64,000 bases of DNA from an uncultured Candidatus Saccharibacteria bacterium (GCA_964565195.1 CAZMCQ010000005.1:30697-94696); one strand, 5' to 3'. Shown: positions 23,063-64,000, numbered from the stretch's first letter. Notes: generated by a model from the letters alone, not told the origin. Program-made: numbers and translations.

Positions 23063-23515
23063 TTATTTTAAATTCTCCGATTCCAATGCTTTTTCGATTT
23101 CCGCGTCGAGGTCAATCTCGATCTTCCGCGCGGGTTTTGCGGCCGGTTTCTCGACGGGTGCGGCCTCCTGCGGAGTTCTCCGTTTCATCTGGCTCTGGAT
23201 GACGCGATCCTTTTCCATGCGCTCGAGCGCCTCGTCCATATTTACTACGAGATGGCGGATGATACTTTGGGTGGTGCGGATCCGGTGTTCGATCTCATTA
23301 ATTTTGTCTGACGGCGCGCTGAAGCCGACCACGACATAGTGGCCGATCTTGGTTTTCTTGATCGGGTAGGCGAGTTTTTTTTTGCCGGGCTCTTCGTATT
23401 TTTCAATGAGGCCGCCGCCGCTTTCGATAAATTTCCTGACCTCGTCAGTGGTTTTCGGGATCTCGTCGTCCGCGACATGCGAGCCGACGATGTACATCAA
23501 TTCATATTTTGGCAT
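23063..23515 (-). CDS. rpsF: 30S ribosomal protein S6
   Basis: MPKYELMYIVGSHVADDEIPKTTDEVRKFIESGGGLIEKYEEPGKKKLAYPIKK. First gene of the classic rpsF-ssb-rpsR unit. Confidence 0.9.
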   Translation of the reverse strand: MPKYELMYIVGSHVADDEIPKTTDEVRKFIESGGGLIEKYEEPGKKKLAYPIKKTKIGHYVVVGFSAPSDKINEIEHRIRTTQSIIRHLVVNMDEALERMEKDRVIQSQMKRRTPQEAAPVEKPAAKPARKIEIDLDAEIEKALESENLK

Positions 23516-28903: not shown

Positions 28904-30718
28904 TTAGACTTGTATTACTACGGGTAAGACCATAGGTCGGCGTTCGGTCCTCTGAAAGAGGAACTCGCCGATCTGGTCGCGGATTTGGTTTCGGATAAAC
29001 GCCCAGTTCGCCTCGTGCGGTTTGTGATTGTGAGTTTCTACGACTTTGCGGACTTCATGCTTGACCTCACGAATGAGGTCTTCCGAGCCCTTCATATACA
29101 CGAACCCGCGCGAGATGATATCCGGGTGATTGACGAGTTTGCCACTCCGGCGGTCCACGCTCATGATCACCACGAACATGCCGTCTTTGGCCATGACCTG
29201 CCGGTCGCGCAGCACCACCTCGCCGACATCGCCGACCCCGAGGCCATCCACGAAGATGAGCCCCGAGGAAACCTGCTCGCCAAGCTTGCGCGCGCCATGC
29301 GGACCGATCTCCAGCACCTGGCCGTTGTCCACGATAAAGATATTTTCCCGTTTTACGCCCACTGATTCGGCCAGGTTCGCATGCGCCACCAGCATGTAGT
29401 GTTCGCCGTGAATCGGCATAAAGTATCTCGGCTTGGTGAGCGAGATCATGAGTTTGAGGTCTTCCTGGCGCGCGTGGCCCGAGGTGTGCACATCGAGAAT
29501 TTTCTGGTAAAGCACGTGCGCGCCCTGGCGGGTGAGATCATTCATCACTGACGCGATCGCCCGCTCGTTGCCCGGGATGGGCGAGGCCGAGACCACGACC
29601 GTGTCGCCCGGTTTGATGCGGATGGTTTTGTGTTCCTGCCGCGCGATGCGCGCGAGGGCTGCCGCCTCTTCGCCCTGGGAGCCGGTCGTGAGAATCAGAA
29701 CTTTATTATCCGGCAATCTGTGGGCCGCTTCGGCAGTAACAATGGTTCTTTTTGGAATGTCGAGATAGGCCATACCATGGGCGATTTCGACATTGGTCAC
29801 CATACTTCTCCCGGTGACCACGACCTTGCGGTCCATTTTTACGGACGAGTTGATGGCCTGTTGGATGCGCGAGATGAGCGTGGAGAAGGTCGCGAAAATC
29901 ACGCGGCCTGGCGCATCTTTGACGATGCGGTCAATGGTTTCGCCAAGTTCCTTTTCCGAGATGGAATAGCCGGGTTCGTTGGCATTGGTCGAGTCTGACA
30001 TCAGGAGATCCACGCCCTCGCCGCCGAATTTAGCGATTTTGTCAAACTCGCTCGGCTTCTGGTCCACCGGCGTGTGGTCGAATTTCCAGTCCGTGGCGTA
30101 GACGACGTGCGCGGCCGGAGTTTTGATGGAGAGGCCGACCGAGTCCGGAATGTTGTGATTCAGGCGGAAGAAACGGATGGTGAAGACGCCGAGCGTAAGC
30201 GTATCGTCCTTGCTCACCCGATGGATTTTGGAGCGGCCCTGGAGATGAAATTCCTCGAGGCGCTTGTCAATAAACGCGGCCGTGAGCGGCATGGTGTACA
30301 CGTCTGGATCGCCGATTTTCGGCAGGATGTAAGGCACGGCGCCGATGTGATCGAGGTGGCCGTGGGTGATGATCACGCCGCGGATATTTTTTTTCCGTTC
30401 CTGCAGATATTTGGTATCCGGAATAACATAATCAATTCCCGGCATGGTTTCATCCGGGAACGCCAGGCCCATATCCACGACGATGATGTCATGGCCGTAT
30501 TCGAACATGGTCATGTTTTCACCGACCTCTTCCACGCCGCCAAGCGGAATGACGCGCAGGCGCGCCCCGCCTTCGCCAAGGCTTCGGCGGGCAGGCTCAC
30601 TCTTTTGTGTCGCTTGAGCACCACGGGCGTACTGAACAGAGCGCGAGACCGGCAGGTGGCGCACCATTCGTTTTCTCATTCCCGAATGGGTCCGGGAACT
30701 TCTGGTAAAGGCAATCAT
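28904..30718 (-). CDS. rnj: Ribonuclease J (metallo-beta-lactamase/beta-CASP RNase)
   Basis: LRVIPLGGVEEVGENMTMFEYGHDIIVVDMG, HGHLDHIGAVPY (HxHxDH), beta-CASP and a C-terminal domain. The true start is probably an internal Met upstream of LRVIPLGG. Confidence 0.88.
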   Translation of the reverse strand: MIAFTRSSRTHSGMRKRMVRHLPVSRSVQYARGAQATQKSEPARRSLGEGGARLRVIPLGGVEEVGENMTMFEYGHDIIVVDMGLAFPDETMPGIDYVIPDTKYLQERKKNIRGVIITHGHLDHIGAVPYILPKIGDPDVYTMPLTAAFIDKRLEEFHLQGRSKIHRVSKDDTLTLGVFTIRFFRLNHNIPDSVGLSIKTPAAHVVYATDWKFDHTPVDQKPSEFDKIAKFGGEGVDLLMSDSTNANEPGYSISEKELGETIDRIVKDAPGRVIFATFSTLISRIQQAINSSVKMDRKVVVTGRSMVTNVEIAHGMAYLDIPKRTIVTAEAAHRLPDNKVLILTTGSQGEEAAALARIARQEHKTIRIKPGDTVVVSASPIPGNERAIASVMNDLTRQGAHVLYQKILDVHTSGHARQEDLKLMISLTKPRYFMPIHGEHYMLVAHANLAESVGVKRENIFIVDNGQVLEIGPHGARKLGEQVSSGLIFVDGLGVGDVGEVVLRDRQVMAKDGMFVVIMSVDRRSGKLVNHPDIISRGFVYMKGSEDLIREVKHEVRKVVETHNHKPHEANWAFIRNQIRDQIGEFLFQRTERRPMVLPVVIQV

Positions 30719-32908: not shown

Positions 32909-34762
32909 TTATATTTGTTCTTTTAAAATTTTCGCTTTTGCCTCGCCGATGACCTCTGCGATTTCGTCATGCGAGGTTTTTTTTATTTCCGCAGCCGAGC
33001 CGAATTTTTTTAAGAGTTTTTTCTTGAGCACTGGCCCAATCCCAGGGATCTCGTCGAGCCGCGAACGGACCATCGCGCGGCCGCGCCGCCCGCGGTGAAA
33101 GGTCGCGGCAAACCGGTGCGCCTCGTCGCGGAGGCGCTGCAGCAGATGCAGAACCAGAGAATTTTGCGGCAGACGAATCGGTTGTTTTTTTTGGGAAAGA
33201 TAAATTTCTTCGAGCCGTTTGGCCAAAGCGATCTTGGGAATTGGGAATTGGGAATTGGGAATTGCGGCTTCCGCCGCGTTGAGCTGTCCGCGGCCGCCGT
33301 CAATGATGATGAGGTCAGGGGTTGGCCAGGTTTTCGACCTCTCCCTTTCTCCCTCCCCATCACCTGGGGAGGGAACTCCTCTCTCCAGGAGGTGGAGAGA
33401 GGATGGGAGAGGGGTCGAGATATGCCCGAACCTTCTCTCCAACATCTCCCGCATCATCGCCACGTCATCTGGCGTTTCCTTGATATTGATTTTGAATTTT
33501 CGGTACTGCGATTTGTCTGGCCGGCCCTGCGTGAAAACTATCATTGAACCCACGGGATGGGTGCCCTGCATATTGGAGATATCAAAAGCTTCGATCCGCT
33601 CCGGCAATTTCGGAAGATTGAGAAGCCTTTTTAATTCCTCGAGAATTTTCGTCTCGTCTTCTTTTTCGAATGTGGCGCGTTCGCGTTCATAGTACGCCCG
33701 CGCGTTTTCGCCGGCCAGCTGCATCAGTTTGCCCTTGCGGCCGCGCACGGGCACAGCGATTTTAACTTTTGCTTTTCGCAATTTGCCGAGCGCGGCTTCC
33801 ACGATGTCGCTGTTTTCGATGCGGCCCGGCAAAAAAATATTTTTCGGGATGTCGGAACTGTCCTGATAATATTGCACGATGAAGCGTTCGAGGATTTCGC
33901 CCGCCGGCGCGCTATCATGCGTAAGCGTAAAATGCTCCTGGTTTAGGAGTTTCCCTTCGCGGACCAAGAATACATTGACCACTGCTTCAGTCGGAGCGGT
34001 GTATAGGCCGAGGTAGTCCTCATTTTCTTTTTTGGGCGAGATGACTTTTTGCCGTTCCCAGATCGAAAGCAGGGCGCGAAGCTTGTCGCGGAGCAGCGCC
34101 GCGTATTCAAAATTTTTCTCCCGCGCCGCCTGCTTCATATCGTGTTTTAGATCTGCGATTACCGCGCCTTGCTTATGTCTCAAAAAATCACCAATCTCTT
34201 TCATCTGGTGCCGGTATTGTGAAAGAGAAATTTCGCCGACGCAGACACCCGGGCAGCGTTTCAGATGATAGGCAAAGCAGGGCCTGCTGGTGATTTTTTT
34301 GTTCCGGCAAAGATGGAAAACATTTTCGATGAGTTTCAAAGTGCGGCGGACGGCGAGGCCGGAAGTGTAGGGGCCGAAGTATTTTGCTTGCGCCCGCGAT
34401 CCCAATTTACGAACCGGGTATATTTGGGGAATTGCAGAGGCGTAATCGATCTTGATGAACTGGTAGTTTTTATCGTCGCGCAGCAGGATGTTATAGCGCG
34501 GCTGGTACTGCTTGATGAGGTTGTTTTCGAGAATCAGACTTTCCACTTCGTTGGAGACCAGGAAATAGTCGAGGTCAGCGATCTCGGCAATCATCATTTC
34601 TGTGCGCGTCTCGCGGCCAGAGCTTTTGATGAAATAACTGCGCACGCGAGCGCGCAGATTTTTCGCCTTGCCGACATAAATAATTTCTCCGGCCGCATTT
34701 TTGTATAAATACACGCCGGGTTTGGCAGGAAGGGTGTTTAGCTTGCTTTCAAGCAACGACAT
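32909..34762 (-). CDS. uvrC: Excinuclease ABC subunit C
   Basis: N-terminal GIY-YIG ([30 protein letters not shown]), a UvrBC-interaction region and C-terminal RNase H-like/HhH domains. It contains in-frame insertions encoded by the (GGGAATT)4 repeat and two GC-rich hairpins. Confidence 0.93.
33236..33263. repeat. (GGGAATT)x4 perfect heptanucleotide tandem repeat inside the uvrC coding sequence
   Basis: tt-gggaatt-gggaatt-gggaatt-gggaatt-gcgg. It encodes [11 protein letters not shown] in UvrC. Related copies occur in tsaD (9221..9250) and the minor-pilin leader (52938..52992). Confidence 0.85.
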
Positions 34763-42442: not shown

Positions 42443-43603
42443 ATGGCCAGGAATTATTACGACATTTTAGGCGTTTCCAAAAACGCGTCGCGCGACGAGA
42501 TTAAGCGCGCCTACCGAAAACTGGCGCACGAATACCATCCGGATAAACAGCACGGCCGCGGCGACGAGCAAAAATTCCGCGAGCTAAACGAGGCCTACGA
42601 GGTTTTGTCGGACGAGACCAAGCGCGCGCAGTATGACCAGTTTGGTCAGACTTTTGAGTCCGCCAGAGGCGGACAGGCAGGCTTTGGTGGGTTCTCTGGA
42701 TTCAATGATTTCTCCGAATTTATGAAGGGCTTTGGCCAGAACTATTCGCGCGGGCCGTATGCGGGCATGGAATTCGACTTCGGCGATATTTTCTCGGATA
42801 TCTTTGGCGCGCCGCGGCAGAGCCGCAAGCGTCAGGGCGTGGATCTCGAGATGACGCTCGAGATCAATTTTCCCGAGTCAGTTTTTGGCGCGGAAAAAGA
42901 ACTAACCCTTGAAAAAAAAGACGCCTGCCCGCGCTGCGCGGGTTTGGGCGCCGAGCCGGGCAGTAAAAACAAGGCCTGTCCTAAATGCCACGGCCAGGGA
43001 CAGATTATCACGCATCAGAAAACCATTCTCGGCAGTTTCCAGAGCGCGCAAACCTGCGACCGATGTATGGGTTCCGGACAGGTGCCGGAAAAAGAATGCA
43101 CGGAGTGCAAAGGCGCGGGCTGGAAGAAAGTGAAGAAGAAGGTCAAAGTTGTGATTCCGCCCGGGATAGGCGACAGCCAGCGGCTCAAACTTACCGGCGA
43201 AGGAGAATTCGGTTACAAAGGCAGCAAATCAGGCAATCTATATATTGTGATAAGAGTAAAACCGCATCCGGAATTCGTGCGCGCCGGCTTTGACATCCGC
43301 AGCGAAGTGCCGATAAGTTTTTATCAGGCCGCGCTCGGCGCGAAGATCGAGGTCAAAACCGTGGACGGCCCGGTGATGCTCAAAATTCCGGCGGGCATTC
43401 AGTCCGGCGAGGTGCTGCGTTTGCGCGCAAAGGGTGTGCCGCATCTCGAGAGCACGCGCCGCGGCGATCATCTCCTCACCATCCGCATCATCACGCCAAC
43501 GAAGCTAACCCGCAAAGAAAAAGAATTATTTAAGCAAATGGCCGGGGAGCGCGGCGAAGCCGGCAGCATTGACGAGAGCTTTTGGGATAGACTGAAAAAA
43601 TAA
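42443..43603 (+). CDS. dnaJ: Molecular chaperone DnaJ
   Basis: J-domain with HPD ([13 protein letters not shown]), G/F region, four CxxCxGxG zinc motifs. Confidence 0.95.
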
Positions 43604-43630: not shown

Positions 43631-43707
43631 TGGTGGAGATAGCCGGATTCGAACCGGCGACCTTCGCATTGCAAATGCGACGCTCTAACCAGCTGAGCTA
43701 TATCCCC
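43631..43707 (-). tRNA. tRNA-Ala (anticodon UGC), CCA encoded
   Basis: Reverse complement GGGGATATAGCTCAGCTGGTTAGAGCGTCGCATTTGCAATGCGAAGGTCGCCGGTTCGAATCCGGCTATCTCCACCA. Confidence 0.9.
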
Positions 43708-43956
43708 TCATTGCCCTTTCAATCCGCTGAAGATTGACGCCAGCGGGCCGAGGAACAGTTCCAAAAGGCCAAACATATACATTCCGGACAGGATGATTGC
43801 TGCCAGCCCGATCAGTTTGTAAAGCAAATACGTCCCGCCGGAGGAGAGATGCTGCTCGGCCCAAGGCACCTTGCCGAAAAGGCCGACCAGCGGATAAGTC
43901 TTCCAGATGAGCAACGTGCCGAGGCCGATGCCAATTAGTCCCCAAATGATGCGCAT
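43708..43956 (-). CDS. Small membrane protein (82 aa, 2 TM helices) packed exactly between tRNA-Ile and tRNA-Ala
   Basis: MRIIWGLIGIGLGTLLIWKTYPLVGLFGKVPWAEQHLSSGGTYLLYKLIGLAAIILSGMYMFGLLELFLGPLASIFSGLKGQ. The ATG lies 5 nt after the tRNA-Ile CCA and the TGA stop abuts the tRNA-Ala 5' end. There is no Shine-Dalgarno sequence. Confidence 0.35.
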   Translation of the reverse strand: MRIIWGLIGIGLGTLLIWKTYPLVGLFGKVPWAEQHLSSGGTYLLYKLIGLAAIILSGMYMFGLLELFLGPLASIFSGLKGQ

Positions 43957-43961
43957 ATGTT

Positions 43962-44036
43962 TGGTGGGCACGGATGGAATCGAACCATCGACCCCTTCAT
44001 TATCAGTGAAGTGCTCTGCCCCTGAGCTACGTGCCC
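43962..44036 (-). tRNA. tRNA-Ile (anticodon GAU), CCA encoded
   Basis: Reverse complement GGGCACGTAGCTCAGGGGCAGAGCACTTCACTGATAATGAAGGGGTCGATGGTTCGATTCCATCCGTGCCCACCA. Confidence 0.9.
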
Positions 44037-46697: not shown

Positions 46698-48446
46698 ATG
46701 GCCACGACCACTGCCGTAAAAAAAGCCGTTAGTTTTGAACAATTTTTGGTGGACGAGGGCTATGTCACCAAAAAACAGCTTGCGGATGTGCACCTCGCGC
46801 AGGTGAAAAGCAAGCTTCCCGTTGATCAGGCGCTCGTCGCCGAGAAAATTTTGGACGAGGAAAAACTGACGCGCGCGAAAGCCGTTTTTTTTCATCTGCC
46901 CTATGTGGACCTGCGGATAGTGGGGCTGCCCAAAGAAGCGCTCGCGGTCATTGCCAAAGAGACCATTGAGAACTATCGGTTTTTACCGTTTGCCAAGCAG
47001 GGCAATTTATTGAAAATCGCGCTTACGGACCCGGCGGATCTGCGGGCCCTCGAGGCGCTGGAATTTTTGGCGCAAAAAAATAAATACCGCATCGAACTCT
47101 ACCTGACGTCCAGGACCAGTTTTAGCGAAGCGCTGCACCGTTCCAAGACGATCACGACCGAAGTTTCCGAGGCCTTGCACATTATCGAGGAGAAAGAAAA
47201 AGAAGTCGGCAAGCCGCAAAAAGCGGCGGTGGAGGAAACGCGGAAAATCGCGGCCGAAGCGCCGCTCACGAAGATCGTGGACGTGATCATCGCGCACGCG
47301 ATCACGGCGCGCGCCTCGGACATTCACATCGAACCGCAGGAGAACGATTTGCGGATCCGGTACCGCATCGACGGCATTTTGCACAGCTCGTTGGTCGTCC
47401 CGAAGATCGTTCATCCCGGCGTGGTGTCACGCATCAAGATCCTTTCCAATCTCAAGATCGATGAGCAGCGCCTGCCGCAGGACGGCCGGTTTCATATGAA
47501 TATCGAGGACCGGTCGATTGACTTCCGCGTTTCCACCCTGCCGACGGTCAATGGCGAAAAAGTGGTGATGCGCATCCTCGACAAATCCGGCGGCGTACCG
47601 ACTTTGGAAGAACTGGGGCTTTCGGGCATGAAGCTGGAACGCCTGCGAGAAAATATCGTGAAGGCGCACGGCATGCTGCTCGTGACCGGCCCGACCGGCA
47701 GCGGCAAATCTACCACACTTTATGCCGTGCTGAACATCCTTAACAAAATCGGCGTCAACATCGTGACTCTGGAAGATCCGGTGGAGTACTATATTGAGGG
47801 CGTGAACCAGTCCCAGATCAATCCTGACATCGGCCTGACCTTTGCCTCGGGCCTGCGCTCCATCCTCCGGCAGGATCCGAACATCATCATGGTCGGCGAG
47901 ATCCGCGATCGCGAGACCGCGGAGCTGGCGGTGCACTCCGCGCTTACCGGGCACCTCGTGTTTTCGACGCTGCACACCAATGACGCGATCGGCGCGATCC
48001 CGCGGCTTTTGGACATGGGCATCGAGGCGTTTCTGCTGACCGCTTCGGTCAACGCCGTGATGGCGCAGCGCCTGGTGCGGAAGATTTGTCCGGATTGCAA
48101 GACGGAAATTCCCGTTCCGGACGAGATTCAAAAGATGTTCAAAGATGAGCTCAAAGACATTCCGGCCGGCGAAAGCGCGGCAGTGGATTTGTCCAAGATC
48201 AAGATGTTCAAAGGGCAGGGCTGCAAAACCTGCTCGGATACCGGCTACCAGGGACGGATCGCGATTTTTGAGGTGCTGCCGCTCTCGGACCCGATCAAAA
48301 ATATCATTCTGGAGCGCCAGTCTGTCGCCAAAATCAAGGAAACCGCCGTGGCCGAAGGTATGATTTTTATGAAACAGGACGGACTTTTGAAGGTGCTCGC
48401 CGGCCGCACGACCATCGAAGAGGTGATACGGGTAACGAAGGAATAA
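46698..48446 (+). CDS. pilB: Type IV pilus extension ATPase PilB (GspE family) with N-terminal GSPII_E_N domain
   Basis: Walker A GPTGSGKSTTLY, Asp box, His box, the CxxC...CxxC tetracysteine (CPDCK...CKTCSDTG). 582 aa. Confidence 0.92.
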   Translation: MATTTAVKKAVSFEQFLVDEGYVTKKQLADVHLAQVKSKLPVDQALVAEKILDEEKLTRAKAVFFHLPYVDLRIVGLPKEALAVIAKETIENYRFLPFAKQGNLLKIALTDPADLRALEALEFLAQKNKYRIELYLTSRTSFSEALHRSKTITTEVSEALHIIEEKEKEVGKPQKAAVEETRKIAAEAPLTKIVDVIIAHAITARASDIHIEPQENDLRIRYRIDGILHSSLVVPKIVHPGVVSRIKILSNLKIDEQRLPQDGRFHMNIEDRSIDFRVSTLPTVNGEKVVMRILDKSGGVPTLEELGLSGMKLERLRENIVKAHGMLLVTGPTGSGKSTTLYAVLNILNKIGVNIVTLEDPVEYYIEGVNQSQINPDIGLTFASGLRSILRQDPNIIMVGEIRDRETAELAVHSALTGHLVFSTLHTNDAIGAIPRLLDMGIEAFLLTASVNAVMAQRLVRKICPDCKTEIPVPDEIQKMFKDELKDIPAGESAAVDLSKIKMFKGQGCKTCSDTGYQGRIAIFEVLPLSDPIKNIILERQSVAKIKETAVAEGMIFMKQDGLLKVLAGRTTIEEVIRVTKE

Positions 48447-53534: not shown

Positions 53535-53999
53535 ATGAAAAAATTACTTTTACCAATAGTCGGCATAGCGGTTTTGGTTATCGCTTATTATGCGGTTAAC
53601 AACTGGCAAAAACAGACCGCGGTGGAGAGCGACCAGGGCGGCGAGGAGTTCAAGGTGGCCAAAAAAGAAGTGAGCGCGGATGAGGCGCCGGCCGGCTTTC
53701 CTCAAGGCGTGCCGATTGAGGCGGGCGCGACGATAATTCAGAATTATGAAGCCGAGGTGAGTGATGGCCGGCATCAGGCCACGCGCGCGTTTGTCTCCGG
53801 TAAAACCGTAGCGCAAAACTATCAAGTATATTTGGACTTTTTAACTAGCGATGGCTGGGAGATAAAAAATAAATCCGGCACTGAAACCGTGGCTTCGCTC
53901 TATGCCGTCAAATCTGACAGCGAACTCACGGTGAGCATCACCAAAAACGCCGTAACTGGCGTGGTCACCGTTGATTTAAGCGTCCTGGCAAAGCAATAG
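53535..53999 (+). CDS. Membrane-anchored protein with GFP...GW motif (paralog of 58749..59264)
   Basis: N-terminal TM helix LLLPIVGIAVLVIAYYAV. ...APAGFPQGVPIEAG...YQVYLDFLTSDGWEIKNKSG aligns with TGFPDKYLPVP...FYRKLFAAEGWQNQT of the paralog. Confidence 0.6.
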   Translation: MKKLLLPIVGIAVLVIAYYAVNNWQKQTAVESDQGGEEFKVAKKEVSADEAPAGFPQGVPIEAGATIIQNYEAEVSDGRHQATRAFVSGKTVAQNYQVYLDFLTSDGWEIKNKSGTETVASLYAVKSDSELTVSITKNAVTGVVTVDLSVLAKQ

Positions 54000-54059: not shown

Positions 54060-55142
54060 TTATGGCCCAGCGAGCTCGAGCGGCTCGAGCGTCGCGGGAT
54101 CAACTAAGTTCTCATACTCGCCGGCGAGGACATAGCCCGTGTCCTCAAAGTAGAGAACGAGGCGAGTTCGCTCGGCCGGGAATTTGTCGTCAGGCGAGAC
54201 GCCCGCGATAATCCGGTCATGTTTCAGCTCCTCAATGGTGTTGGGGCCACTCGAGCGCGAGATGACGCGGTTGCCGAGGAGCACTAGCACGCGCCCGGGC
54301 TTGGCGCTGGGAAATTTACCAGTTGCCACGATCGCGCTGGGCTTCATATCGCTGTAGGTGATCCAGAGCACGCCAGCATTCAGTCGCGGGCCGATTCCGC
54401 CGCCCCGGCCATATTCGAGAAAGGTGAAATCAAACCGCGCGAGCGCGAATATGATTTGCTCGCTCGCGTCGGTAAGCTTCACCTCAATGCTGTAGTCGCC
54501 TTTGGGCGTGGTGTCGTCCAGAGCCGCTTCGTAGAGAGGCGTTTTTGTCTCCGAGCCGGAAGCGAGATCCAGGACCGGGGTCGGGACGCCAAATCCAACC
54601 TCATTCCCGCCGGGTGTAAGCAGACGGAAAACAAGACGAAATGCCCCCCGGAGCGGCCGCAAGGCATAAGCCGCGATCGCGAGTGTTTTGTCGTTGCCGC
54701 CGGCAAAATGGGAGGCTGGGAACAAAATAGCTGCCGGGTTTTGCAGGAGTGGCAATTCCGTCGGATCATATACAGTCGCCATCTCCCCCAGCGCAGAGTA
54801 GCGCGGCGTCTTGCCGTTTTTGTCCAGCGTATAATAAAACCAGGCCACGCCGGGTCGGCCAAAGAAAGCGCGGTATTCGCCGGTGGCCGGGTTCAAAACT
54901 GGGATATCCGCGATTTGCGGGTATTTGGGACGAATCGCGTAGCCCGCAATCCCCGCGGCCTGCCTGATTTTTCTGGTACCGACATTCCAGATATTTGTCC
55001 AGACGAGCCCTGTGGTCGTGCTGCTTGCGACAAACATCGCGCCATCCAGCTTGCTTGCCGGCCCCAGCACGGTTTCCTGCGCCACAAGGAAACGACCGCT
55101 AAAAAGCAGAAGCAACAAAATCGGAAAATTATATCGTTTCAT
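54060..55142 (-). CDS. Secreted hypothetical protein (signal peptide MKRYNFPILLLLLFSGRFLVAQE)
   Basis: AGGAGGAAT RBS before the ATG at 55142. About 360 aa with no recognisable catalytic motif. Confidence 0.6.
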   Translation of the reverse strand: MKRYNFPILLLLLFSGRFLVAQETVLGPASKLDGAMFVASSTTTGLVWTNIWNVGTRKIRQAAGIAGYAIRPKYPQIADIPVLNPATGEYRAFFGRPGVAWFYYTLDKNGKTPRYSALGEMATVYDPTELPLLQNPAAILFPASHFAGGNDKTLAIAAYALRPLRGAFRLVFRLLTPGGNEVGFGVPTPVLDLASGSETKTPLYEAALDDTTPKGDYSIEVKLTDASEQIIFALARFDFTFLEYGRGGGIGPRLNAGVLWITYSDMKPSAIVATGKFPSAKPGRVLVLLGNRVISRSSGPNTIEELKHDRIIAGVSPDDKFPAERTRLVLYFEDTGYVLAGEYENLVDPATLEPLELAGP

Positions 55143-55268
55143 ATTCCTCCTTCGCAGTTTGAAAACAACACACCAGTGTATGCTTTGTCCGGGTAAGATG
55201 TCAAATAAAGAAAGAGAGCCCTCCGGAAAGTTCAAGAGGGCTCTCTTCGTTGTTGCGGGCGGGGTGTG

Positions 55269-55745
55269 TCAGGGCAGTCGCCTGCCCCTTTGGCCCTCTC
55301 CGGTGGGACGGGGCTCGTCGCCTATCGCTTCGTTAATGACCGCAATAGACGGCTGCAGCCAAACCCAGACGATTTCACCGTCAGTCCAGGTTACCCTGAT
55401 CTCGATCGCGAAACCAGGAATCAGGACTTGGCTTAAACGTTGACCGGGTTCTCCGAAGACGGGGCCGAAGACCGCGTCCTGCAGCGCGGGATGCCAATCA
55501 GTGTCCTGAATGACCTGACCGTCCCGCTTGTCCCGGATCGTGACTTGGATATGTCCTACAAAACCATCCGGAACTACGGATGGGATTGTTTGCACATCCA
55601 GGTCACCAATCGTCGGCGCCGGCTTCGGCCCGATTGTCTTTCCCTCTGCCGCGCTGGCGCACAGCAGGAGGGCAACAACGACACAAACGACGGACGAAAC
55701 GAACGATCGAACGAACGAAACGCCGTTAAAACGTTTGGTTTTCAT
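55269..55745 (-). CDS. Small secreted hypothetical protein (signal peptide MKTKRFNGVSFVRSFVSSVVCVVVALLLCASAAEG)
   Basis: AGGAGGG RBS. About 158 aa. Confidence 0.55.
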   Translation of the reverse strand: MKTKRFNGVSFVRSFVSSVVCVVVALLLCASAAEGKTIGPKPAPTIGDLDVQTIPSVVPDGFVGHIQVTIRDKRDGQVIQDTDWHPALQDAVFGPVFGEPGQRLSQVLIPGFAIEIRVTWTDGEIVWVWLQPSIAVINEAIGDEPRPTGEGQRGRRLP

Positions 55746-55920
55746 AGACCCTCCTACTGTGCATTTGGTGTGGCAAGGGTAGCACACCCTCTTATTTTTG
55801 TCAATCATTAAGGCAAAATTAAAGGGCGGGGAATTCGTAATGAATTCCTCGCCCTGTTTTGTTCGTTATGCACCCTCCTTTGGTGCTGTTATTGCGGCCC
55901 GCCTTCATAGGCGAGGCTCG

Positions 55921-58596
55921 CTACTGCGGCTGGCCGGGGACTGCGGCCATGGCGCCAGTCGCGAAGTTGCCGTAGAGCGCAAAGCCCCCGCATGGCGGGC
56001 CTTCCGGCTGAACCAGGTCCTGGTCAGTATCGAAGACTTGCTCCGGCAGGCAGCCAACCCGAATGAATCCTGCGGCTTGCCCGCGGGCCTCGGGAGTGAG
56101 CTCGTCAATCATCGCGACCTTGCGGCCGTAGGGGGGAAGCTGGAATTTGGCAAAGCCAATCCGTGTTCCGCCCTTGCGGTCATAGGCCTCGATGATGACG
56201 TCCACTTTCCGGCCGAGGACATTTCCTATGGCTACGCCTGTGAAGTACCCGGCTGTCGTCGCGATCTGGTTGAAGGACAGATCATGCGACGAGTAGCGCG
56301 GCACGGCGAGCACGGCCTCCTCTTTTCCCGGGCGGCTGAAACTCATTGTTGCGTGGAATTTCGGCGCCCAGGTTTCGGCCCGGATGCGGACCCCGCCGCT
56401 TACCGCGGCGTTTCCGGTAATCTGGAAGAGCTCGCGGATGTCAAGTTCGGCAAGTTCCCCGGGCTTGATCACCCATGAGACCGGATTTTGGGCGACTTCG
56501 GGCAGCAGCGCTCCAGCATCGTTTCTGGCCTCGAACGCGAGTTGAATTTGTTCGGGGCCGAGGTTCACGATCCGGGCCACAGATTGCCAGCCGTCGCCCA
56601 CAGCAAAGTGGGGAAAGACTGGCGGCGGCGCCTCGCCCTTCTGCCCGCCGGTTGAACTCACCGGCGCGGCAACATCCTGCCCCTCCAGATACGAGAAGTC
56701 GCGGCCGGAAATCGAGGTCACGGCCGAGACGAAGACGTCATTGCTTGAGCGAACCCGGACATAAGCCAGATTGGCCAAGCTTTCCACGGCCACGGTCTCG
56801 ACGGCGCCAGCGCGCAGAATTTTTGGAACAGAGAACAGCAATATGCCGCCTCTGTCGTAATACTCCACGCGCGCGTCATTGAGCGCAACCCCGGGATTTA
56901 AGAGGTAAATCTCCCGCAAAGCCCGCCCCTGCAAAAACACGAAGTCCTTGCCGGGACGAAACGCAACCGATCCGCCGTCCAAACCCAGGCTGTCCCCGAA
57001 CACAGTGAAGACCTTCCAGTCTTCCCGCGGCGCGGTGACCACGAGGTAGGCGGCCTGCGCAATAGGCGAGGCAAACCATTCGGGCACGAGTTTGGCAAGC
57101 TGCTGCTTTGGCCCGACCACTTGCGTGGCAGTGCCAAGCAGGCGGCCGGTTTTGTCAAAAGCGCGCAGTTTCACGGCTTGGCCCTCATCATCCGTGAGGT
57201 TCGTAACCGCAAGGCCTTGAAACGTCCCCACGACCGGCAGGTAATAATCCACCTCCCGGTCAACGATGATCCGCAAATCCTGCCGGACGCGCGGATCAAT
57301 CACCGTGTAGGGGACGCCGTTGACCACCGCGGCATTGCCTAGGATCCGCTGCTCCGAAGTCTTGCCCGGAAGCAGAGACGAGAGCTGCCGTTTGGGATCC
57401 ACTTGGGCGAAGATGAAGTTATTCGTGAGGCTACTCGGAATGATCCAGTAGTTCGTGGCAACAAGTATCTCATTGCTTTTTTGGACGAAAAAGGCGACGG
57501 CCTTTGTCCGAAATATCCTTCCGGTCTCATAGAGCAACCCGTCTATACCGAAGAGCAGAAATTTCTCATTCGGCCAGAAACCAAAAAACTCGCGGCGCGG
57601 GGAAAATTGGTTCGCCGGAGCATACAATGGTGCTCTTTCGGCAAGGTCGTTGAAGTTCTCCACGGCCACGGTTACACTTGGGCTGGTGCGGTAATTCGGA
57701 AACAACTCCAACCCGTTTATACTACGGATTGTGTAAGGAAATTCCACTTCGTTGTTGCCCATGGTCACGCCGAGAAACTCGCCGGCTTTCCGGTTTTGGA
57801 TCACGGGGTAGCCCATCACCCATGCGCTGGCCTTCTGCCCGTCAACTGCCGGCACGAGAGAGTCGAGGATTTGCAGAATCGCCGCTTCGGACACGACTGG
57901 AAGCCCGTTGACAGCAGTATTGAGTAGTGTCCAGAAGTCCTGCTTCCCGCTTGCACTTTCGAGCAGTTCCCACATTTGGACCAGCCCGTTTTCTGCATAG
58001 CGATTATTTACGAGATCCGAGCCAGGAGAAGGGACCCAGCGATACTGATTTTGGACCTTCGTAAATGGAGTGAGATTTGCTCGCATTACTTGCGGGCCCA
58101 TTAGGTTTGTCAGGCCGACATTCAGAAGCCCAAGCCGCTGTTCAGCGAACCGGAAATTGCCGTTGGGGTTGGCTTTGCGGAGCTGGGCAGCAATGGCATA
58201 TGCTTCTGCCACAATCCGTCCTTCAAACCACTCCGGTCCGGTGTGCCGGCCATTACCGGTTTGGTACAAGATAGCTTGTAAAACAAGCCAACCATGCAAC
58301 TCGAACCAGACCGAATGAGCAGGGAGGCCGATCTCGATAAAACCTTCCTGCATGGCAATCTGCCTGTGCTCCAAATCTTCCACAGGCACGTCTGACGTGG
58401 CGACCTCGACAACCACATCAGTGCGGGAAGGGGAGACATTGGTGATGAGTGGGATTGCCTCGCTCCACAGCGCATCAAACCGCCTTTGCAGTTCTGGCGA
58501 TCCGGGCTGCTTGTGGCGATAGGTCAACCCAGCAGCAGCGAGCGAAATAAGCGATGCAAAGAACAGCACGCCCAAAGTTATAAAAAGTTTCTGCAT
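55921..58596 (-). CDS. Large secreted protein (891 aa), function unknown
   Basis: Signal peptide MQKLFITLGVLFFASLISLAAA. Long ORF with native GC. No motif recognised by eye. Confidence 0.65.
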   Translation of the reverse strand: MQKLFITLGVLFFASLISLAAAGLTYRHKQPGSPELQRRFDALWSEAIPLITNVSPSRTDVVVEVATSDVPVEDLEHRQIAMQEGFIEIGLPAHSVWFELHGWLVLQAILYQTGNGRHTGPEWFEGRIVAEAYAIAAQLRKANPNGNFRFAEQRLGLLNVGLTNLMGPQVMRANLTPFTKVQNQYRWVPSPGSDLVNNRYAENGLVQMWELLESASGKQDFWTLLNTAVNGLPVVSEAAILQILDSLVPAVDGQKASAWVMGYPVIQNRKAGEFLGVTMGNNEVEFPYTIRSINGLELFPNYRTSPSVTVAVENFNDLAERAPLYAPANQFSPRREFFGFWPNEKFLLFGIDGLLYETGRIFRTKAVAFFVQKSNEILVATNYWIIPSSLTNNFIFAQVDPKRQLSSLLPGKTSEQRILGNAAVVNGVPYTVIDPRVRQDLRIIVDREVDYYLPVVGTFQGLAVTNLTDDEGQAVKLRAFDKTGRLLGTATQVVGPKQQLAKLVPEWFASPIAQAAYLVVTAPREDWKVFTVFGDSLGLDGGSVAFRPGKDFVFLQGRALREIYLLNPGVALNDARVEYYDRGGILLFSVPKILRAGAVETVAVESLANLAYVRVRSSNDVFVSAVTSISGRDFSYLEGQDVAAPVSSTGGQKGEAPPPVFPHFAVGDGWQSVARIVNLGPEQIQLAFEARNDAGALLPEVAQNPVSWVIKPGELAELDIRELFQITGNAAVSGGVRIRAETWAPKFHATMSFSRPGKEEAVLAVPRYSSHDLSFNQIATTAGYFTGVAIGNVLGRKVDVIIEAYDRKGGTRIGFAKFQLPPYGRKVAMIDELTPEARGQAAGFIRVGCLPEQVFDTDQDLVQPEGPPCGGFALYGNFATGAMAAVPGQPQ

Positions 58597-58679
58597 TTTT
58601 TCCTCCCTAAGGTTTTAAACTGCAATCTGTTAAAATTCAGGAAGCTACTTTAGCACAGATACAGCAAAAGGTCAATTGC

Positions 58680-58708
58680 TTGCATTTTAATGAAGAAAAT
58701 GCTATAAT
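58680..58708 (+). promoter_or_regulatory. Sigma70-like promoter TTGCAT-N17-TATAAT for ORF 58749..59264
   Basis: ttgcattttaatgaagaaaatgctataat in an AT-rich divergent intergenic region. Confidence 0.5.
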
Positions 58709-58748
58709 TATAATAGATTAGTGATTAGTCAAAAATTTTAGAAACAAA

Positions 58749-59264
58749 ATGCCATTGAATAAAAAAATAATATTGCTGGCAGGCGCTTTACTCGTGCTTT
58801 CGGGGGCGGGTTATTTTTTATTTATACAAGAACAGGCGAGGGAGCGCGAGGAGAATCCTATAGATAAAATCTCCTCTTCAAATTTTAAAGATCTAAAACC
58901 AGTTGCTGCTCCCAAAGAAATCCCGACGGGATTTCCGGACAAGTATCTGCCGGTGCCGCGCTCGGAACTGAATGCGCAAAATATTTTGTATGGCCAGCAA
59001 GTCACGGAAAATGAACAAGTCTCCTTTTCTTTGAGTTTTGATATCAACCGGACCCCAGAACAGATTTTGGATTTTTATAGAAAATTATTTGCCGCAGAGG
59101 GCTGGCAGAACCAAACTATTTCAGCCGATGAACAGGCGAGACTGGATCCGAATCAAACTCGTCTGCGCGCCTTCAGCCAAGACGGCATTATGGCTTTTGT
59201 CGTTACCGTCGAAAAACTGGAGGAAGGTCTAACTCGTATTGCAATTCTCTATGCTCCATTTTAG
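58749..59264 (+). CDS. Membrane-anchored protein with GFP...GW motif (paralog of 53535..53999)
   Basis: TM helix IILLAGALLVLSGAGYFLFI. Shared motifs with the ORF at 53535..53999. Immediately upstream of the giant adhesin gene, which overlaps its 3' end. Confidence 0.6.
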   Translation: MPLNKKIILLAGALLVLSGAGYFLFIQEQAREREENPIDKISSSNFKDLKPVAAPKEIPTGFPDKYLPVPRSELNAQNILYGQQVTENEQVSFSLSFDINRTPEQILDFYRKLFAAEGWQNQTISADEQARLDPNQTRLRAFSQDGIMAFVVTVEKLEEGLTRIAILYAPF

Positions 59265-62200
59265 GCGATATTTTTCCCAACAACTGCCCTACCTTTTGTT
59301 GTTTTTTGGAATTGCGGTTTGGTTTTTTTTGCTTTGGTCTCAAGTTGAAGCGGCTCCTCCAGGATCATGTTCTGGACCATCCAATTTTGGCATTGACAAC
59401 GTTTGTGCGGCTTTCAGCAACCACCGGCCCTCTTATGTACCGGATAATTTTACTCTGCCAGTCCCGAATTCAGAAAATGACCCTCGTTTTTCTATCGCTA
59501 TAGTTTACCCCATCAAGTTTTATACCAGGAATGTTTTGGGTAGATTTACAGTTGATGAGAAATCGCCTGATGTTACAGGGGGGGGCTCGGTTCCAGTTTG
59601 TGATCTTGGTGAAGGATATGGGTACGCATCCTTTGATGCCTTTTATGGAGGCGATCACTACGCCGGCACTGATAGCTGTATGGCACCAGCCCCTCGCATC
59701 CTTAGAGATGATCTGGGTTTGGCAGGGGATAAGGAATACAAATATTATGGAGAATTATTTGATAACATAAGGGGGCGGGTTATTGATAGTACCAATCCCG
59801 ATCCACTTAACAGAAGTTCGCTTTGCGCTGTTATTTCGCCTGGCGATTATTGCAGCTATACCGTCGTTCGGGTTTATGTACCCAAGCCGCAGCTTGCGGC
59901 GAGCGGCCCGGCCTCGCGGAGCGCCAATGAGACGAGCGTGGCCATCGCGCTCGCCGGCAGCCAGTCATCGCTTGGGAGCGGGACCAGCAGTCAGGGACGG
60001 GACAAGCTCATTTACCGCTATTGGGTGGATGGCAATGCCCCCAGCAGCGATACCAATACGGGCGCGCGAAGTTTCAACACCAACCTGAATCTGAATTTGG
60101 ACTGCAACGCGCACACCGTAACCGTGGAGCTGCGCAACGGCTACCCCCAAGTGCCGAACGTCAATCCGGTGAGCAAGACAGTCAATGTTCCCGCCTGTGC
60201 CAAGTCGGTCACCATTCAGGGCCGGGTCTGGTATGACGAGGATCGCAACGGCACGCAGGATGGCTATATCAAGCGGCCTTTTATCTCCTGCAGCGGATTG
60301 GATGTCGGCCATGTGATCACCCTGAATACCGGCCAGTCTGCTTATTTGGATGGCTGTGATGCCGCGGGCGCCACCTACCAGTTTACGGGCTTGCCTTTGG
60401 CGGATTACACAATAACTTTGGGCGGGCTGTCTGGCTGGCATTTGTTGAGTACCAATCCGGTCACGGTTACGAAAGCGGAATTTGAGGCAAAAAATTATGT
60501 CGCTGATGTTTGGTTTGCGGTCCAGAAGGATGCCCCGCCGCCGCCGGGAAGTTTCACGCTCTCGGTTAGCAAAGATGGCACTGGCTCGGGCACAGTGACG
60601 AGCGCGCCGGCCGGCATCAATTGCGGGGTAACCTGCAGCGCCAATTTCACTGATGGCACGAGTGTTGCCTTGACCGCGAGTGCGGCCTCCGGCTCAACCT
60701 TTGGCGGCTGGAGCGGGGCCTGTTCTGGCACGGGCGGCTGCAGCGTAACTATGAATGCGAACAAGACCGCCACCGCGACTTTTACCAAGACCGGCGGGGG
60801 CGGCAGTTTGGAGGTCACTTTGACGGCCAGCCCATTTTCCGGCACCGGCACAATCAATTCCACTTTATCCGCCTCGGTCAACACTGCCTCAAGTTCGGGA
60901 ACGCCAGTGCCGCCCTACACTTATTCTTTTGATTGCACGAGTGACGGAACATACGAGCATGTCTCCGCTCCAACCAACAGCAACCCTTATTCGTTCAGCA
61001 CTTGCACTTATAGTTCCAGCAGTACCGCAAAAGTTGATGTGGCGGACAGCGCCGGGCAAAGAGGCAGCGCTACGACCCCGATTACGATTGGCGCGCCGCA
61101 GCCGCAAGGCGACACCTGTCCGCAAAATTCCAGCGACCCGGACAACCCTTATGAAGCGCCGCGCGATAAATACAGCGCCTGCGTCTTCAGTAATACCACG
61201 TTGAGCCCCGGCTCAACCTCGCCGCTTGGCGTGTTTGATAATCAATATGCCGGTTATTTTGAGGAAACGCCTCTTGCCCCGCCGCCTTCCGGCCGCGTCC
61301 GTCACGATTACGGCAACGGGAAACCAAAGTGCGGCACGACCGGCGCGCCGGCGCCGACCAATGACTGCAACGGCAACGATAATTTTTCCATCCGCTGGAT
61401 GGGTAATTTTTCCTTTAACCGCGGCCAGTACCGGTTCACGGCCCGCGCCGATGACGGCGTACGACTGTACGTTGACGGCACGCGCATCATTGACGCCTGG
61501 CGCGACCAGCCGCCGACGACTTATACCGCGGACCGCGCTTTGAGCGCCGGCTATCATGCCGTGCAGGTGGAATACTACGAAAAAGGCGGCGGCGCGTATA
61601 TCGAATTTTACTGGGAACTCCTGCCGTGCACCACAGTTGTCAATGGCGATAAGGCCGTGGTTACAAGCGATCTTGGCACAGTCGGAACTGCGCTCAATCC
61701 CGGCGGAATCGCCTGGAACGCGGGCGACCCGATTCCGCGCGAAGTGGCCCTCACCATGCGCAACTGCGGCGACACCACCTGGCAGGCCGCAAACCATTAT
61801 CGCCTCGGCGCGACGAATGATGTGACCATCTGGGGCGCCGGGCGAGTGCGGATGAGCAGCGCTGATTCCTGGGGCGGCACCGTGAGCAACAAAACCCCCA
61901 AAGACACCGTTGCCCCCAATGAGAGCATTACCTTTACGTTTGACGTGACCGCGCCATCCGAGGACGCAGTGAAAAACGGCCGGGATTCAAGCGGCGCCAA
62001 GATTTGTACGAAACAATCCGGTAATACTTATAACTGCAATTTCCGCTACCAGATGCTCCATGAAGCCGTGGCCTGGTTTCCGGACATCGCGGCCGCAACC
62101 GTGAAGGTCGTGATTGATCCCTGTTCGCGCAGCTACCCGCGCGACAGCTGGCAGGCGTGCATCTATAACAAGTCGCCGTTCAACGACTTCGATGCGGCGT

Positions 62201-64000
62201 TTTTCCACAAGGAGATTAGCGATGCTGTGCCGAAGACTAATGCCTACCCGGCGCCGCCGCCGCGGAAAATTTACCATGACTGGGGGGAGAGCGGCCCGCT
62301 CGGCCCGGCCACGACCAACTCCGGACCGCCTTTTTACCTTACCGAGGAGACCGGCAACCCGGTAGATGATTTCAGCGTGCGCTGGCGGGGCAAGTTTAAG
62401 TTTGATAGCGCCGAGTATCAATTTGCGGCCTGCAGCGACGACGGCATCCGTATCTACGTGGATGGTGAAGCGGCAAGCAACCGCATTCTTGAGGACTGGC
62501 GCCCGCGCGCATGCGATGATCCCTCTGGCAGCAGCGGCCGGGTGACGGCGAACAAAGTCTTGGCCGCGGGCGACCACCAAATTATGGTGGAGTATTTTGA
62601 AAGCAGCGGCCAGGCAGTAATTGATGTTTATTGGGAAAAGGTCACGGTTTTGGCGCCAATTGCTGATCCCACGGCTGCGCCCTTTTGTTCTGGCAGTGAT
62701 TCCAAAGCCACCATCTCCTGGAGCGAGGCCGGCCGTGGCAGCGCTGGCTACTTCGTGGATATAGACAATGATAATAACTGGAACAATGGTTTTTGGAATA
62801 AAAATATTCCGTCAGGAACTTTGTCCACCACTGCGCCGGACGGATTTAACGGCTATAATGGGCCGAGCGGGCCGATGCCGCCCCTGCAAGCCGGGGCAAC
62901 CTACCAGGTCCGCATTTTCTACATTGCCACCGGCGAGCACTCCAGTACCGTAAGTTTCAAGGCGAGCACCTGTACCGGCACCTTTACCATCAACGTCGCG
63001 CCGGCCACGCGCACGATCACCCAGGGCGACGCGACGACCTACAATGTCAATGTTTCCTGCAGCGGCAGCTTCGCGGGTCCGGTGACGAATCTGAACGTAA
63101 CCAATCTGCACACCAACACGAACCCTTCTTTCAATCCGACTTCCATAAACTGCAGCGGCCCGGGGGGCAACTCCACGCTTACCATTACCACCTCGGCCGC
63201 GACGCAAACCGGCACCAAAACCCTGAACGTCAATGGCGACGGGGCCGGCGCGGGCACGCAGACCGGCAATGCGGACCTGACCGTCAATGCTCTCGAGCCG
63301 CCGGAAGAGCCGTGCGTCAACAACTGCACTCCGCCGCCGCCCACGGGCGGGTGCTCCGGAACCAATTGCACCAATCCGCCGCCGGGTTTGGGCGGGCAGC
63401 TCGGCGTCGCGGTAAGCTGCGAGCAGATTCTGTTCGCCTGGCAGGACAGGTCCGATAACGAAGACGGCTTCCATGTCTGGCGCGCGCCGTCGTTTGGCGG
63501 GACGACATTGACTTATGAGGGCCGGACCTATTCGCTGCTTGGCACCAAGGGTGCGAACGTGGAATATCATCTTGATACCACCGCTCTCCCTGACCAGTCC
63601 TATTGGTACGCGGTGACCAGCTACAATGCCGGCGGCGATTCCGCAGCAGATGGCCTGGGCCCGATTTTCAATACCGCTTGCGCGGCAAATCTCTCGCTGT
63701 CCGACAAAGTGATTGATTCCGTGAACGGCAGTCCTTACGTCGTCGGGCAGTCCATCAAAAACGGGGACACTGTGCGGTTCCGCATCATCATCAACAACAG
63801 CGGCAATACGGCGGCCTACGACGTGTATGTGGACGATACCATCTCGAGCAACCTGCAGTACACCGGCAACCCGACGATCCAGCGCGGCTCGGGCTCGGAG
63901 AGCGGCATTTCCGTTTCCCAAAACGGGCAGAATCTGATTTTTGACGCTGGTCGGAACCTCGGCGACAAGGATGCCGACAGCCAGAACTGGCTTGTGCGGT
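59251..64000 (+). CDS. Giant secreted multidomain surface/adhesin-like protein with two PA14 domains, 3'-truncated by the window edge (over 1580 codons in the window)
   Basis: Frame 1 is open from the TAA at 59230..59232 to nt 64000. The supplied ORF track lists no frame-1 + ORF after 59251. N-terminus MLHFRRYFSQQLPYLLLFFGIAVWFFLLWSQVEA (ATG 59251; alternative TTG 59239 with AGGAAGG 11 nt upstream). PA14-like blocks: NDNFSIRWMGNFSFNRGQYRFTARADDGVRLYVDGTRIIDAW...YHAVQVEYYEKGG and DDFSVRWRGKFKFDSAEYQFAACSDDGIRIYVDGE...DHQIMVEYFESSG. Also a Cna-B/SdrD-B-like region, a divergent InlB-B-repeat-like region, an FN3-like region and DUF11/CARDB-like segments. Confidence 0.85.
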   Translation, partial: MLHFRRYFSQQLPYLLLFFGIAVWFFLLWSQVEAAPPGSCSGPSNFGIDNVCAAFSNHRPSYVPDNFTLPVPNSENDPRFSIAIVYPIKFYTRNVLGRFTVDEKSPDVTGGGSVPVCDLGEGYGYASFDAFYGGDHYAGTDSCMAPAPRILRDDLGLAGDKEYKYYGELFDNIRGRVIDSTNPDPLNRSSLCAVISPGDYCSYTVVRVYVPKPQLAASGPASRSANETSVAIALAGSQSSLGSGTSSQGRDKLIYRYWVDGNAPSSDTNTGARSFNTNLNLNLDCNAHTVTVELRNGYPQVPNVNPVSKTVNVPACAKSVTIQGRVWYDEDRNGTQDGYIKRPFISCSGLDVGHVITLNTGQSAYLDGCDAAGATYQFTGLPLADYTITLGGLSGWHLLSTNPVTVTKAEFEAKNYVADVWFAVQKDAPPPPGSFTLSVSKDGTGSGTVTSAPAGINCGVTCSANFTDGTSVALTASAASGSTFGGWSGACSGTGGCSVTMNANKTATATFTKTGGGGSLEVTLTASPFSGTGTINSTLSASVNTASSSGTPVPPYTYSFDCTSDGTYEHVSAPTNSNPYSFSTCTYSSSSTAKVDVADSAGQRGSATTPITIGAPQPQGDTCPQNSSDPDNPYEAPRDKYSACVFSNTTLSPGSTSPLGVFDNQYAGYFEETPLAPPPSGRVRHDYGNGKPKCGTTGAPAPTNDCNGNDNFSIRWMGNFSFNRGQYRFTARADDGVRLYVDGTRIIDAWRDQPPTTYTADRALSAGYHAVQVEYYEKGGGAYIEFYWELLPCTTVVNGDKAVVTSDLGTVGTALNPGGIAWNAGDPIPREVALTMRNCGDTTWQAANHYRLGATNDVTIWGAGRVRMSSADSWGGTVSNKTPKDTVAPNESITFTFDVTAPSEDAVKNGRDSSGAKICTKQSGNTYNCNFRYQMLHEAVAWFPDIAAATVKVVIDPCSRSYPRDSWQACIYNKSPFNDFDAAFFHKEISDAVPKTNAYPAPPPRKIYHDWGESGPLGPATTNSGPPFYLTEETGNPVDDFSVRWRGKFKFDSAEYQFAACSDDGIRIYVDGEAASNRILEDWRPRACDDPSGSSGRVTANKVLAAGDHQIMVEYFESSGQAVIDVYWEKVTVLAPIADPTAAPFCSGSDSKATISWSEAGRGSAGYFVDIDNDNNWNNGFWNKNIPSGTLSTTAPDGFNGYNGPSGPMPPLQAGATYQVRIFYIATGEHSSTVSFKASTCTGTFTINVAPATRTITQGDATTYNVNVSCSGSFAGPVTNLNVTNLHTNTNPSFNPTSINCSGPGGNSTLTITTSAATQTGTKTLNVNGDGAGAGTQTGNADLTVNALEPPEEPCVNNCTPPPPTGGCSGTNCTNPPPGLGGQLGVAVSCEQILFAWQDRSDNEDGFHVWRAPSFGGTTLTYEGRTYSLLGTKGANVEYHLDTTALPDQSYWYAVTSYNAGGDSAADGLGPIFNTACAANLSLSDKVIDSVNGSPYVVGQSIKNGDTVRFRIIINNSGNTAAYDVYVDDTISSNLQYTGNPTIQRGSGSESGISVSQNGQNLIFDAGRNLGDKDADSQNWLVR

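Follow-up and report, generated by a model that had tools for sequence, protein, structure and literature searches.

Does a run of eight guanines close to the start of a large surface-protein gene work as a phase-variation switch, or is it simply what consecutive glycine codons leave behind? The question is raised by a G8 homopolymer at 59578..59585 on the plus strand of the window, by which we mean the whole stretch of 64,000 nucleotides analysed here. The organism is probably a member of the Patescibacteria (CPR), judging from the relatives of its PilC, whose best match is 70% identical (in an unclassified MAG) and which shares 41-45% identity with MAGs of Komeilibacteria, Minisyncoccota and Parcubacteria. 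The tract, in the context ...gatgttaca GGGGGGGG ctcggttcc..., is read as ACA GGG GGG GGC TCG when counted from the ATG at 59251, and its codons 110-112 (GGG GGG GGC) encode the Gly-Gly-Gly of the peptide TGGGS. Both the exact position, about 110 codons into the gene, and the frame were confirmed by three-frame translation. The length of eight found in the assembly keeps the signal peptide and the body of the protein in one frame, and the gene is therefore intact. We consider it probable that the tract is incidental, a homopolymer resulting from three glycine codons within an orphan and mosaic N-terminal module that belongs to a secreted surface protein with PA14 domains, and the evidence for and against this reading is discussed below.

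The outcome of slippage was simulated in silico for tract lengths of 5 to 11. Gain of one nucleotide (G9) or loss of two (G6) led to the TGA at 59601..59603 on the plus strand, with products of 117 and 116 aa, respectively. Loss of one nucleotide (G7) or gain of two (G10) led to the TAA at 59768..59770 on the same strand, with products of 172 and 173 aa, and G5 and G11 kept the surface-protein frame. The original prediction that a one-base change in the tract would truncate the protein was borne out by these simulations, and the +2-frame ORF to which it pointed (59531..59770) does exist, ends at the same TAA and is the frame read by the G7 allele. Compared with what characterizes phase-variable genes, the locus contains, inside an ORF, a G/C tract of the length concerned (at least about 7-8 nt), in which changes of ±1 cause frameshift and truncation, while an over-representation of tracts relative to the expectation from composition or codon usage was not found. 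The tract is real, in frame and situated where a switch would work, yet it is statistically ordinary. An 8-nt G run is likely more indel-prone than ordinary sequence; a tandem-repeat search found no repeat at the G8 tract. It may also be observed that contingency tracts classically occupy this position, in the 5′ coding part of a surface-protein gene right behind the signal peptide, which sits uneasily with an incidental origin.

How ordinary the tract is depends on the composition of the sequence around it. A genomic GC content of 58% had been assumed, while the window measured 54.3%, with P(G|G) = 0.27. Under a first-order Markov model with simulations of 64 kb, 2.0 G/C runs of at least 8 nt are expected per 64 kb and the probability of at least one is 0.86. 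In the second null model synonymous codons were shuffled across the 44 genes of the window, keeping each protein and the per-gene codon usage, and here the expectation was 1.2 such runs over the window CDS (probability of at least one 0.71) and 0.32 in the surface-protein ORF alone. With one run observed, the claim that a G8 would be rare in such a genome is refuted. Runs of G/C of at least 6, 7 and 8 nt were observed 11, 2 and 1 times in the CDS of the window, against shuffled means of 14.9, 3.6 and 1.2, so that G/C runs are mildly depleted, not enriched, in the window. The pilC-centred loci of related genomes, 394 kb altogether, contained four G/C runs of at least 8 nt, or about one per 100 kb. 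The G8 at 59578 is the sole G/C run of at least 8 nt in the window, the next longest being a G7 at 31026, and no second tract-bearing surface gene was found in these 64 kb.

The earlier statement that no comparable run occurs elsewhere holds for G/C only, while A/T runs of 8-9 nt occur nine times in the window, once in the same gene. The run in the same gene is a T8 at 59323..59330 on the plus strand, in codons 25-27 (F-F-L) of the predicted signal peptide, so that two 8-nt runs lie in this 5′ region. Others lie inside rpsF, encoding ribosomal protein S6 (9 nt, at codon 45; 23375), in the gene for RNase J (8 nt, 30387) and in uvrC (two), and further genes with an internal A/T run of 8-9 nt are dnaJ (8 nt, 42912), pilB and a gene of the phosphoglucomutase/phosphomannomutase family (PGM_PMM). 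Essential genes of this organism evidently tolerate homopolymers of 8-9 nt, with the reservation that A/T runs can stand in for G/C runs only imperfectly, since the latter slip more readily in several organisms. The choice of glycine codons may also be considered. Nine runs of at least three glycines are encoded in the window, and of these only the tripeptide at the tract has codons that give more than five consecutive G, in a genome where GGC makes up 62% of the glycine codons; this codon choice is an observation that does not favour an incidental tract. Within the AT-rich module that harbours the tract, GGG accounts for 26% of the glycine codons, from which it follows that encoding Gly-Gly-Gly as GGG-GGG-GGN has a probability of about 0.07.

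The alternative to an incidental tract that deserves most attention is that slipped-strand mispairing at the G8 toggles the surface protein between ON (G8, G5, G11) and OFF (G7, G9). In this way an episymbiotic CPR cell would be able to vary a protein used for attachment to its host or as a phage receptor. The placement of the tract in the 5′ coding region past the signal peptide, and the truncated products of 117 or 172 aa that follow from a change of ±1, are what such a switch would entail. The protein carries PA14 carbohydrate-binding domains, a type IV pilus cluster lies about 5 kb upstream of its gene, and the GGG GGG codon choice is unusual for the genome. It has been documented that homopolymeric tracts at the 5′ ends of genes are a route of gene inactivation in many prokaryotes (PMC2831843), and at least one CPR lineage is without MutS/MutL (PMC8406219). 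These proteins are reported absent from Saccharibacteria and present in other CPR lineages (PMC8406219). It is worth observing that a lack of MutS/MutL, as described for some CPR lineages (PMC8406219), would make a G8 strongly hypermutable, a circumstance that speaks against regarding such a tract as incidental.

The resemblance to established switches is clear at the level of the single locus. In the poly-G/C loci of Campylobacter jejuni, Neisseria meningitidis (for example hmbR and hpuAB) and Helicobacter, as in the present gene, a G run of about 8 lies in the 5′ part of a surface-protein ORF and a change of ±1 leads to an early stop (PMC8355987, PMC3786947, PMC5084427, PMC2823697). The genomes of C. 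jejuni, N. meningitidis and Helicobacter contain dozens of such tracts, far above chance, with length heterogeneity both in reads and between strains. In contrast to that picture, there is here a single tract at chance frequency, known from one assembly, in a genome of 54% GC where a G8 arises easily. A second likeness is to inlA of Listeria monocytogenes (Orsi et al. 2010, PMC2831843), where a 5′ homopolymer in an adhesin-type surface gene gives truncation upon frameshift, and the InlB-B-repeat-type domain (Flg_new_2) of the present protein adds to this likeness. The inlA tract is, however, a poly(A) at about codon 8 for which the frequency of frameshifting was measured (PMC2831843), whereas the tract described here is a poly(G) at codon 110 that is known from sequence alone.

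Several results weaken the case for a switch. G/C tracts are not above chance in either null model, and no other tract-bearing surface gene lies within the 64 kb. No length variant or off-state product was encountered in the databases searched; the predicted truncated products of the G6, G7, G9 and G10 alleles were absent from a collection of 15 billion proteins in an exact look-up, which is a weak negative. Orthologues with which conservation of the tract could be compared were not found, and the literature searches retrieved no paper on homopolymeric tracts in Patescibacteria/CPR or joining phase variation with this group. These observations make slippage-driven toggling at the G8 unlikely, and that the G8, possibly together with the T8 of the signal peptide, constitutes a working ON/OFF switch of a host-attachment or phage-receptor protein in a CPR episymbiont is more doubtful still. 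Were it to be true, the CPR/Patescibacteria radiation could have its first described contingency locus, and the protein would be singled out as a key site of contact with host or phage. Stochastic surface switching is known mainly from host-adapted pathogens, and such a locus would extend it to ultra-small, uncultured episymbionts.

Whether the tract belongs to the gene at all depends on where the gene begins. From 59233 onwards the reading frame is free of stops as far as the window extends, and its first ATG is at 59251, from where the surface-protein ORF (59251..64000, plus strand) runs out of the window and continues for 60 codons beyond it. The public gene call P0001 (1500 aa) uses an internal ATG, Met144 (59680..59682, plus strand), as its start and leaves out both the signal peptide and the G8 tract. 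It is 100% identical to the surface protein over the whole region searched and reaches 60 aa past the window, so that with the 143 residues upstream of Met144 the full ORF amounts to 1643 aa, which is large but not the giant adhesin originally envisaged. Pfam searches identified two PA14 domains (PF07691, E = 6e-28, 97.9 bits against a cut-off of 24) and a further Flg_new_2 (InlB B-repeat) domain, and DUF11 was detected below threshold. A role at the surface or as an adhesin may be proposed for the 1643-aa protein. In having two PA14 domains, a predicted N-terminal signal peptide and a multi-domain Ig-like/DUF11 architecture it resembles PA14 surface proteins and adhesins (PF07691), from which it differs in that its N-terminal 200-330 aa are without a homologue and that no C-terminal anchor motif was recognised.

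The start of the gene, previously placed at 59264, was set at 59251, where the ATG overlaps the upstream ORF (58749..59264), including its stop codon, by 14 nt. The protein is predicted to begin there with a Sec signal peptide (59251..59352, plus strand), MLHFRRYFSQQLPYLLLFFGIAVWFFLLWSQVEA, with cleavage expected ahead of the residues APPGS. It has a basic n-region, a hydrophobic core of 18 residues and V-E-A at positions −3 to −1, as read by eye from the translation according to the (−3,−1) rule. We consider 59251 to be the true start and the public call to be 143 codons late, with the signal peptide missed, since 149 stop-free codons precede Met144 in DNA of 45% GC (P ~9e-4), since GC1 > GC2 > GC3 in this region as in AT-rich coding sequence, since the first ATG directly precedes the predicted signal peptide, and since an extracellular PA14/DUF11 protein needs one. 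A role for the G run as a Shine-Dalgarno sequence for Met144 was rejected, as the run lies 95 nt upstream.

It could be argued to the contrary that the locus reflects an artefact of assembly or annotation, either because the tract length was miscalled in low-coverage Illumina data or because the gene does start at Met144, the 143 upstream codons being a non-functional remnant. The public call begins at Met144, and for codons 1-143 the log-likelihood ratio (LLR) of codon usage falls below zero (−0.22 per codon), compared with +0.32 to +0.38 in the body of the gene. Furthermore, three independent Logan assemblies are fragmentary, all losing coverage at 58656-58706 in the AT-rich intergenic region to the left of the gene. 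These contigs, from SRR12113383, SRR12113384 and SRR12113385, were located through the 154-aa and 891-aa neighbour proteins; they are 100% identical to the window and stop at 58656, 58670 and 58706, and none extends to the G8 tract. Nextera adapter tails terminate two of these contigs, and the ends seem to reflect a loss of coverage in the spacer of 28% GC and not a structural variant. The negative codon score is in itself enough to explain why an automatic gene caller would trim the start, and a miscalled tract length would most likely break the frame rather than keep it. The open frame upstream of Met144 in otherwise stop-rich DNA, its coding-like GC profile and the predicted, canonical signal peptide, which the Met144 product would be without, also oppose an artefact, and we regard this explanation as very unlikely. 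An origin of the run as a poly-G read artefact of two-colour chemistry was likewise rejected, as the run is short and internal, keeps the reading frame and has consistent ORF sequence on either side.

A scan of GC and codon usage along the gene showed GC3 of 0.33-0.42 per 40-codon window in codons 1-200. The values rise to 0.80, 0.70, 0.80 and 0.72 in the windows from codon 201 onwards, so that the composition changes sharply at about 59850 (codon 200). The GC content is 44.8% for 59251-59850 and 59.2% for 59851-63999, and the in-frame LLR is about −0.2 per codon in the AT-rich N-terminus against +0.3 to +0.4 in the rest. The original prediction of an AT-rich N-terminus thus describes a real feature, and the GC3 step is even sharper than was claimed, but the remainder of the gene falls short of the suggested 62% or so and the feature is not confined to the gene. 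It spans an AT-rich block of 42.7% GC (58597..59850) that takes in a divergent intergenic region of 28% GC, a 171-aa gene and codons 1-200. The 171-aa gene (58749..59264, plus strand; GC3 0.43) is an orphan with a predicted membrane anchor and a weak precomputed match to PF27226, and it is the one whose end overlaps the surface-protein start. Codons following the signal peptide up to the boundary (59353..59850, plus strand) form a Cys-containing N-terminal module with AT-rich codon usage for which no homologue was found in the searches. An AlphaFold2 model of aa 34-331, made with no alignment, had a mean pLDDT of 32 and was unusable, and an Rfam scan of 58000-60500 returned sub-threshold noise only.

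Near the boundary the GC-rich body has neither an in-frame ATG nor a signal peptide of its own, so that its export is predicted to depend on the AT-rich module. The composition is most simply read as the trace of a cassette of promoter, small gene and N-terminal module that may have been acquired or replaced by recombination from a donor of lower GC content. Such an event would be reminiscent of mosaic surface-protein genes with exchanged N-terminal modules, with which the present gene shares a sudden shift of GC3 and codon usage inside the coding sequence, at what is probably a domain boundary, and from which it differs in that composition is all that points to an exchange. The proposal of a mosaic N-terminal module hence gains from the GC3 step, the atypical codon usage and the orphan status of the module, whereas no donor or alternative N-terminus was found in the searches. 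We regard the AT-rich block with its foreign codon usage as a more solid feature of this locus than the G8 tract as a switch.

Several searches bear on the orphan status. For the N-terminal 331 aa, a word-indexed search of 5.8 billion proteins matched only the gene itself, no relative was found in GTDB genomes or JGI metagenomes, and a full HMMER search over 1.84 billion cluster representatives gave only P0001 and one spurious stretch of 24 residues. The body (aa 332-1583) had P0001, that is, the same gene, as its only full-length match and no orthologue; the other matches covered 6-16% of the query, which corresponds to the 65-aa B-repeat domain, the only part that the nearest proteins in the databases have in common with it. 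The 171-aa upstream protein matched only itself. Neither the N-terminal region nor the protein as a whole thus had an orthologue in the collections searched. Moreover, the proteins of the locus had no tblastn matches in 24 related pilC loci, which implies that there is no synteny, and blastn against a plasmid collection gave no match.

On the incidental reading the G8 would be a by-product of three consecutive glycine codons, GGG GGG GGC, lying in the orphan N-terminal module of a putatively Sec-secreted protein of 1643 aa with PA14, InlB-B-repeat and DUF11 domains. The first 200 codons would form, together with the 171-aa gene and the promoter region, one AT-rich block of 1.25 kb, through which the protein may have gained its N-terminus by recombination. 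Nothing indicates that selection either placed the tract or kept it as a switch. The case has cautionary value, in that a single G8 in a Gly-rich surface protein is no more than chance would produce in a genome of 54% GC. As by-products of the analysis, a public gene call that appears to be 143 codons late and a gene with a compositionally foreign, orphan N-terminal module have come to light.

The AT-rich block is bracketed by an inverted repeat of 19 nt with 18 of 19 positions matched (58563-58581 and 60412-60430), and DNA inversion at this repeat, rather than slippage, could in principle swap the 5′ ends of the surface-protein gene and the divergent gene of 891 aa. Such an inversion is most improbable. 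In its favour, no other inverted repeat of the window, hairpins aside, matches at 18/19 or better with its arms within 3 kb (P ~0.07 per 64 kb in Markov simulations), and each arm is read in frame in the gene where it lies. Against it, this P value is marginal and was obtained post hoc, a domain scan of the large ORFs of the window up to 64000 revealed no recombinase or invertase domain, the three Logan contigs (three runs, low coverage) cross the left arm in the orientation of the window only, and the inverted surface protein would be without a complete signal peptide. The left arm corresponds to codons 6-11 of the 891-aa gene and the right arm to codons 388-393 of the surface protein, both reading I-T-L-G-(V/G)-L, and the repeat is probably coincidental.

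Long homopolymers are common in the essential genes of the window. A/T runs were located inside rpsF (9 nt, 23375-23383), the PGM_PMM gene of the phosphoglucomutase/phosphomannomutase family (8 nt, 26217-26224), the RNase J gene (8 nt, 30387-30394), dnaJ (8 nt, 42912-42919) and pilB (8 nt, 46885-46892), and two such runs of 8 nt each are found inside uvrC (32977-32984 and 33185-33192). The surface-protein gene that carries the G8 tract also harbours a T8 run at 59323-59330, corresponding to codons 25-27 in its signal peptide. A G10 run was found in the pilus locus of Parcubacteria GW2011_GWF2_45_11 (contig LCKE01000028.1, positions 8722-8731 of locus L024), approximately 1.3 kb upstream of pilC and close to the start of an ORF of 385 codons which, from its position before pilC, is taken to be a putative pilT-like gene. 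This run is longer than predicted by chance for a locus of 47% GC and, lying in a CPR pilus cluster, it could be a better candidate for phase variation than the window's G8.

The AT-rich block that includes the 5′ part of the surface-protein gene lies between the arms of a 19 nt inverted repeat (58563-58581 and 60412-60430; 18 of 19 positions matched), the sole distant inverted repeat of such quality in the whole window. Simulations put the probability that one arises by chance in 64 kb at about 0.07. Each arm encodes ITLG(V/G)L in frame, and the two arms belong to different genes, the divergent 891-aa gene and the surface-protein gene. A domain search of the large ORFs of the window found no recombinase near the repeat, and all three matching Logan contigs display a single orientation, the second not being seen.

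Three independent Logan assemblies (L025/L027, L028 and L029, from SRR12113383, -84 and -85) all stop no more than 50 nt apart, at 58656-58706, in an intergenic spacer of 28% GC, and two of the three terminate in Nextera adapter sequence (CTGTCTCTTATACACATCT). A structural variant as the cause of these ends is disfavoured; they look like a coverage dropout in AT-rich DNA. The public gene call of the surface-protein gene (P0001, 1500 aa) starts at Met144 (59680) and so leaves out, within 59251-59682, 143 codons including the signal peptide, probably because the AT-rich 5′ module has a negative codon-usage score.

The membrane-anchored proteins of 154 aa (53535-53999) and 171 aa (58749-59264) share 25% identity (E = 9e-5), both match PF27226 weakly and are distant paralogues. 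Their genes stand either side of a trio of orphan genes on the minus strand (54060-58596; 56-58% GC), whose products of 391, 179 and 891 aa matched no Pfam domains, and this block has the pilus cluster on one side and the surface-protein gene on the other. The 5′ part of the 179-aa gene contains 10.5 imperfect tandem copies of the tetranucleotide AACG (73% matches, 55677-55719), an array that is too degenerate for an obvious slippage switch.

Between dnaJ and pilM (43631-44036), the minus strand carries adjacent tRNA-Ile(GAT) and tRNA-Ala(TGC) genes, the usual pair of rRNA spacers. Protein-coding ORFs flank the pair immediately on either side and leave no space for adjoining 16S or 23S genes, and the rRNA genes are therefore presumably unlinked to it.
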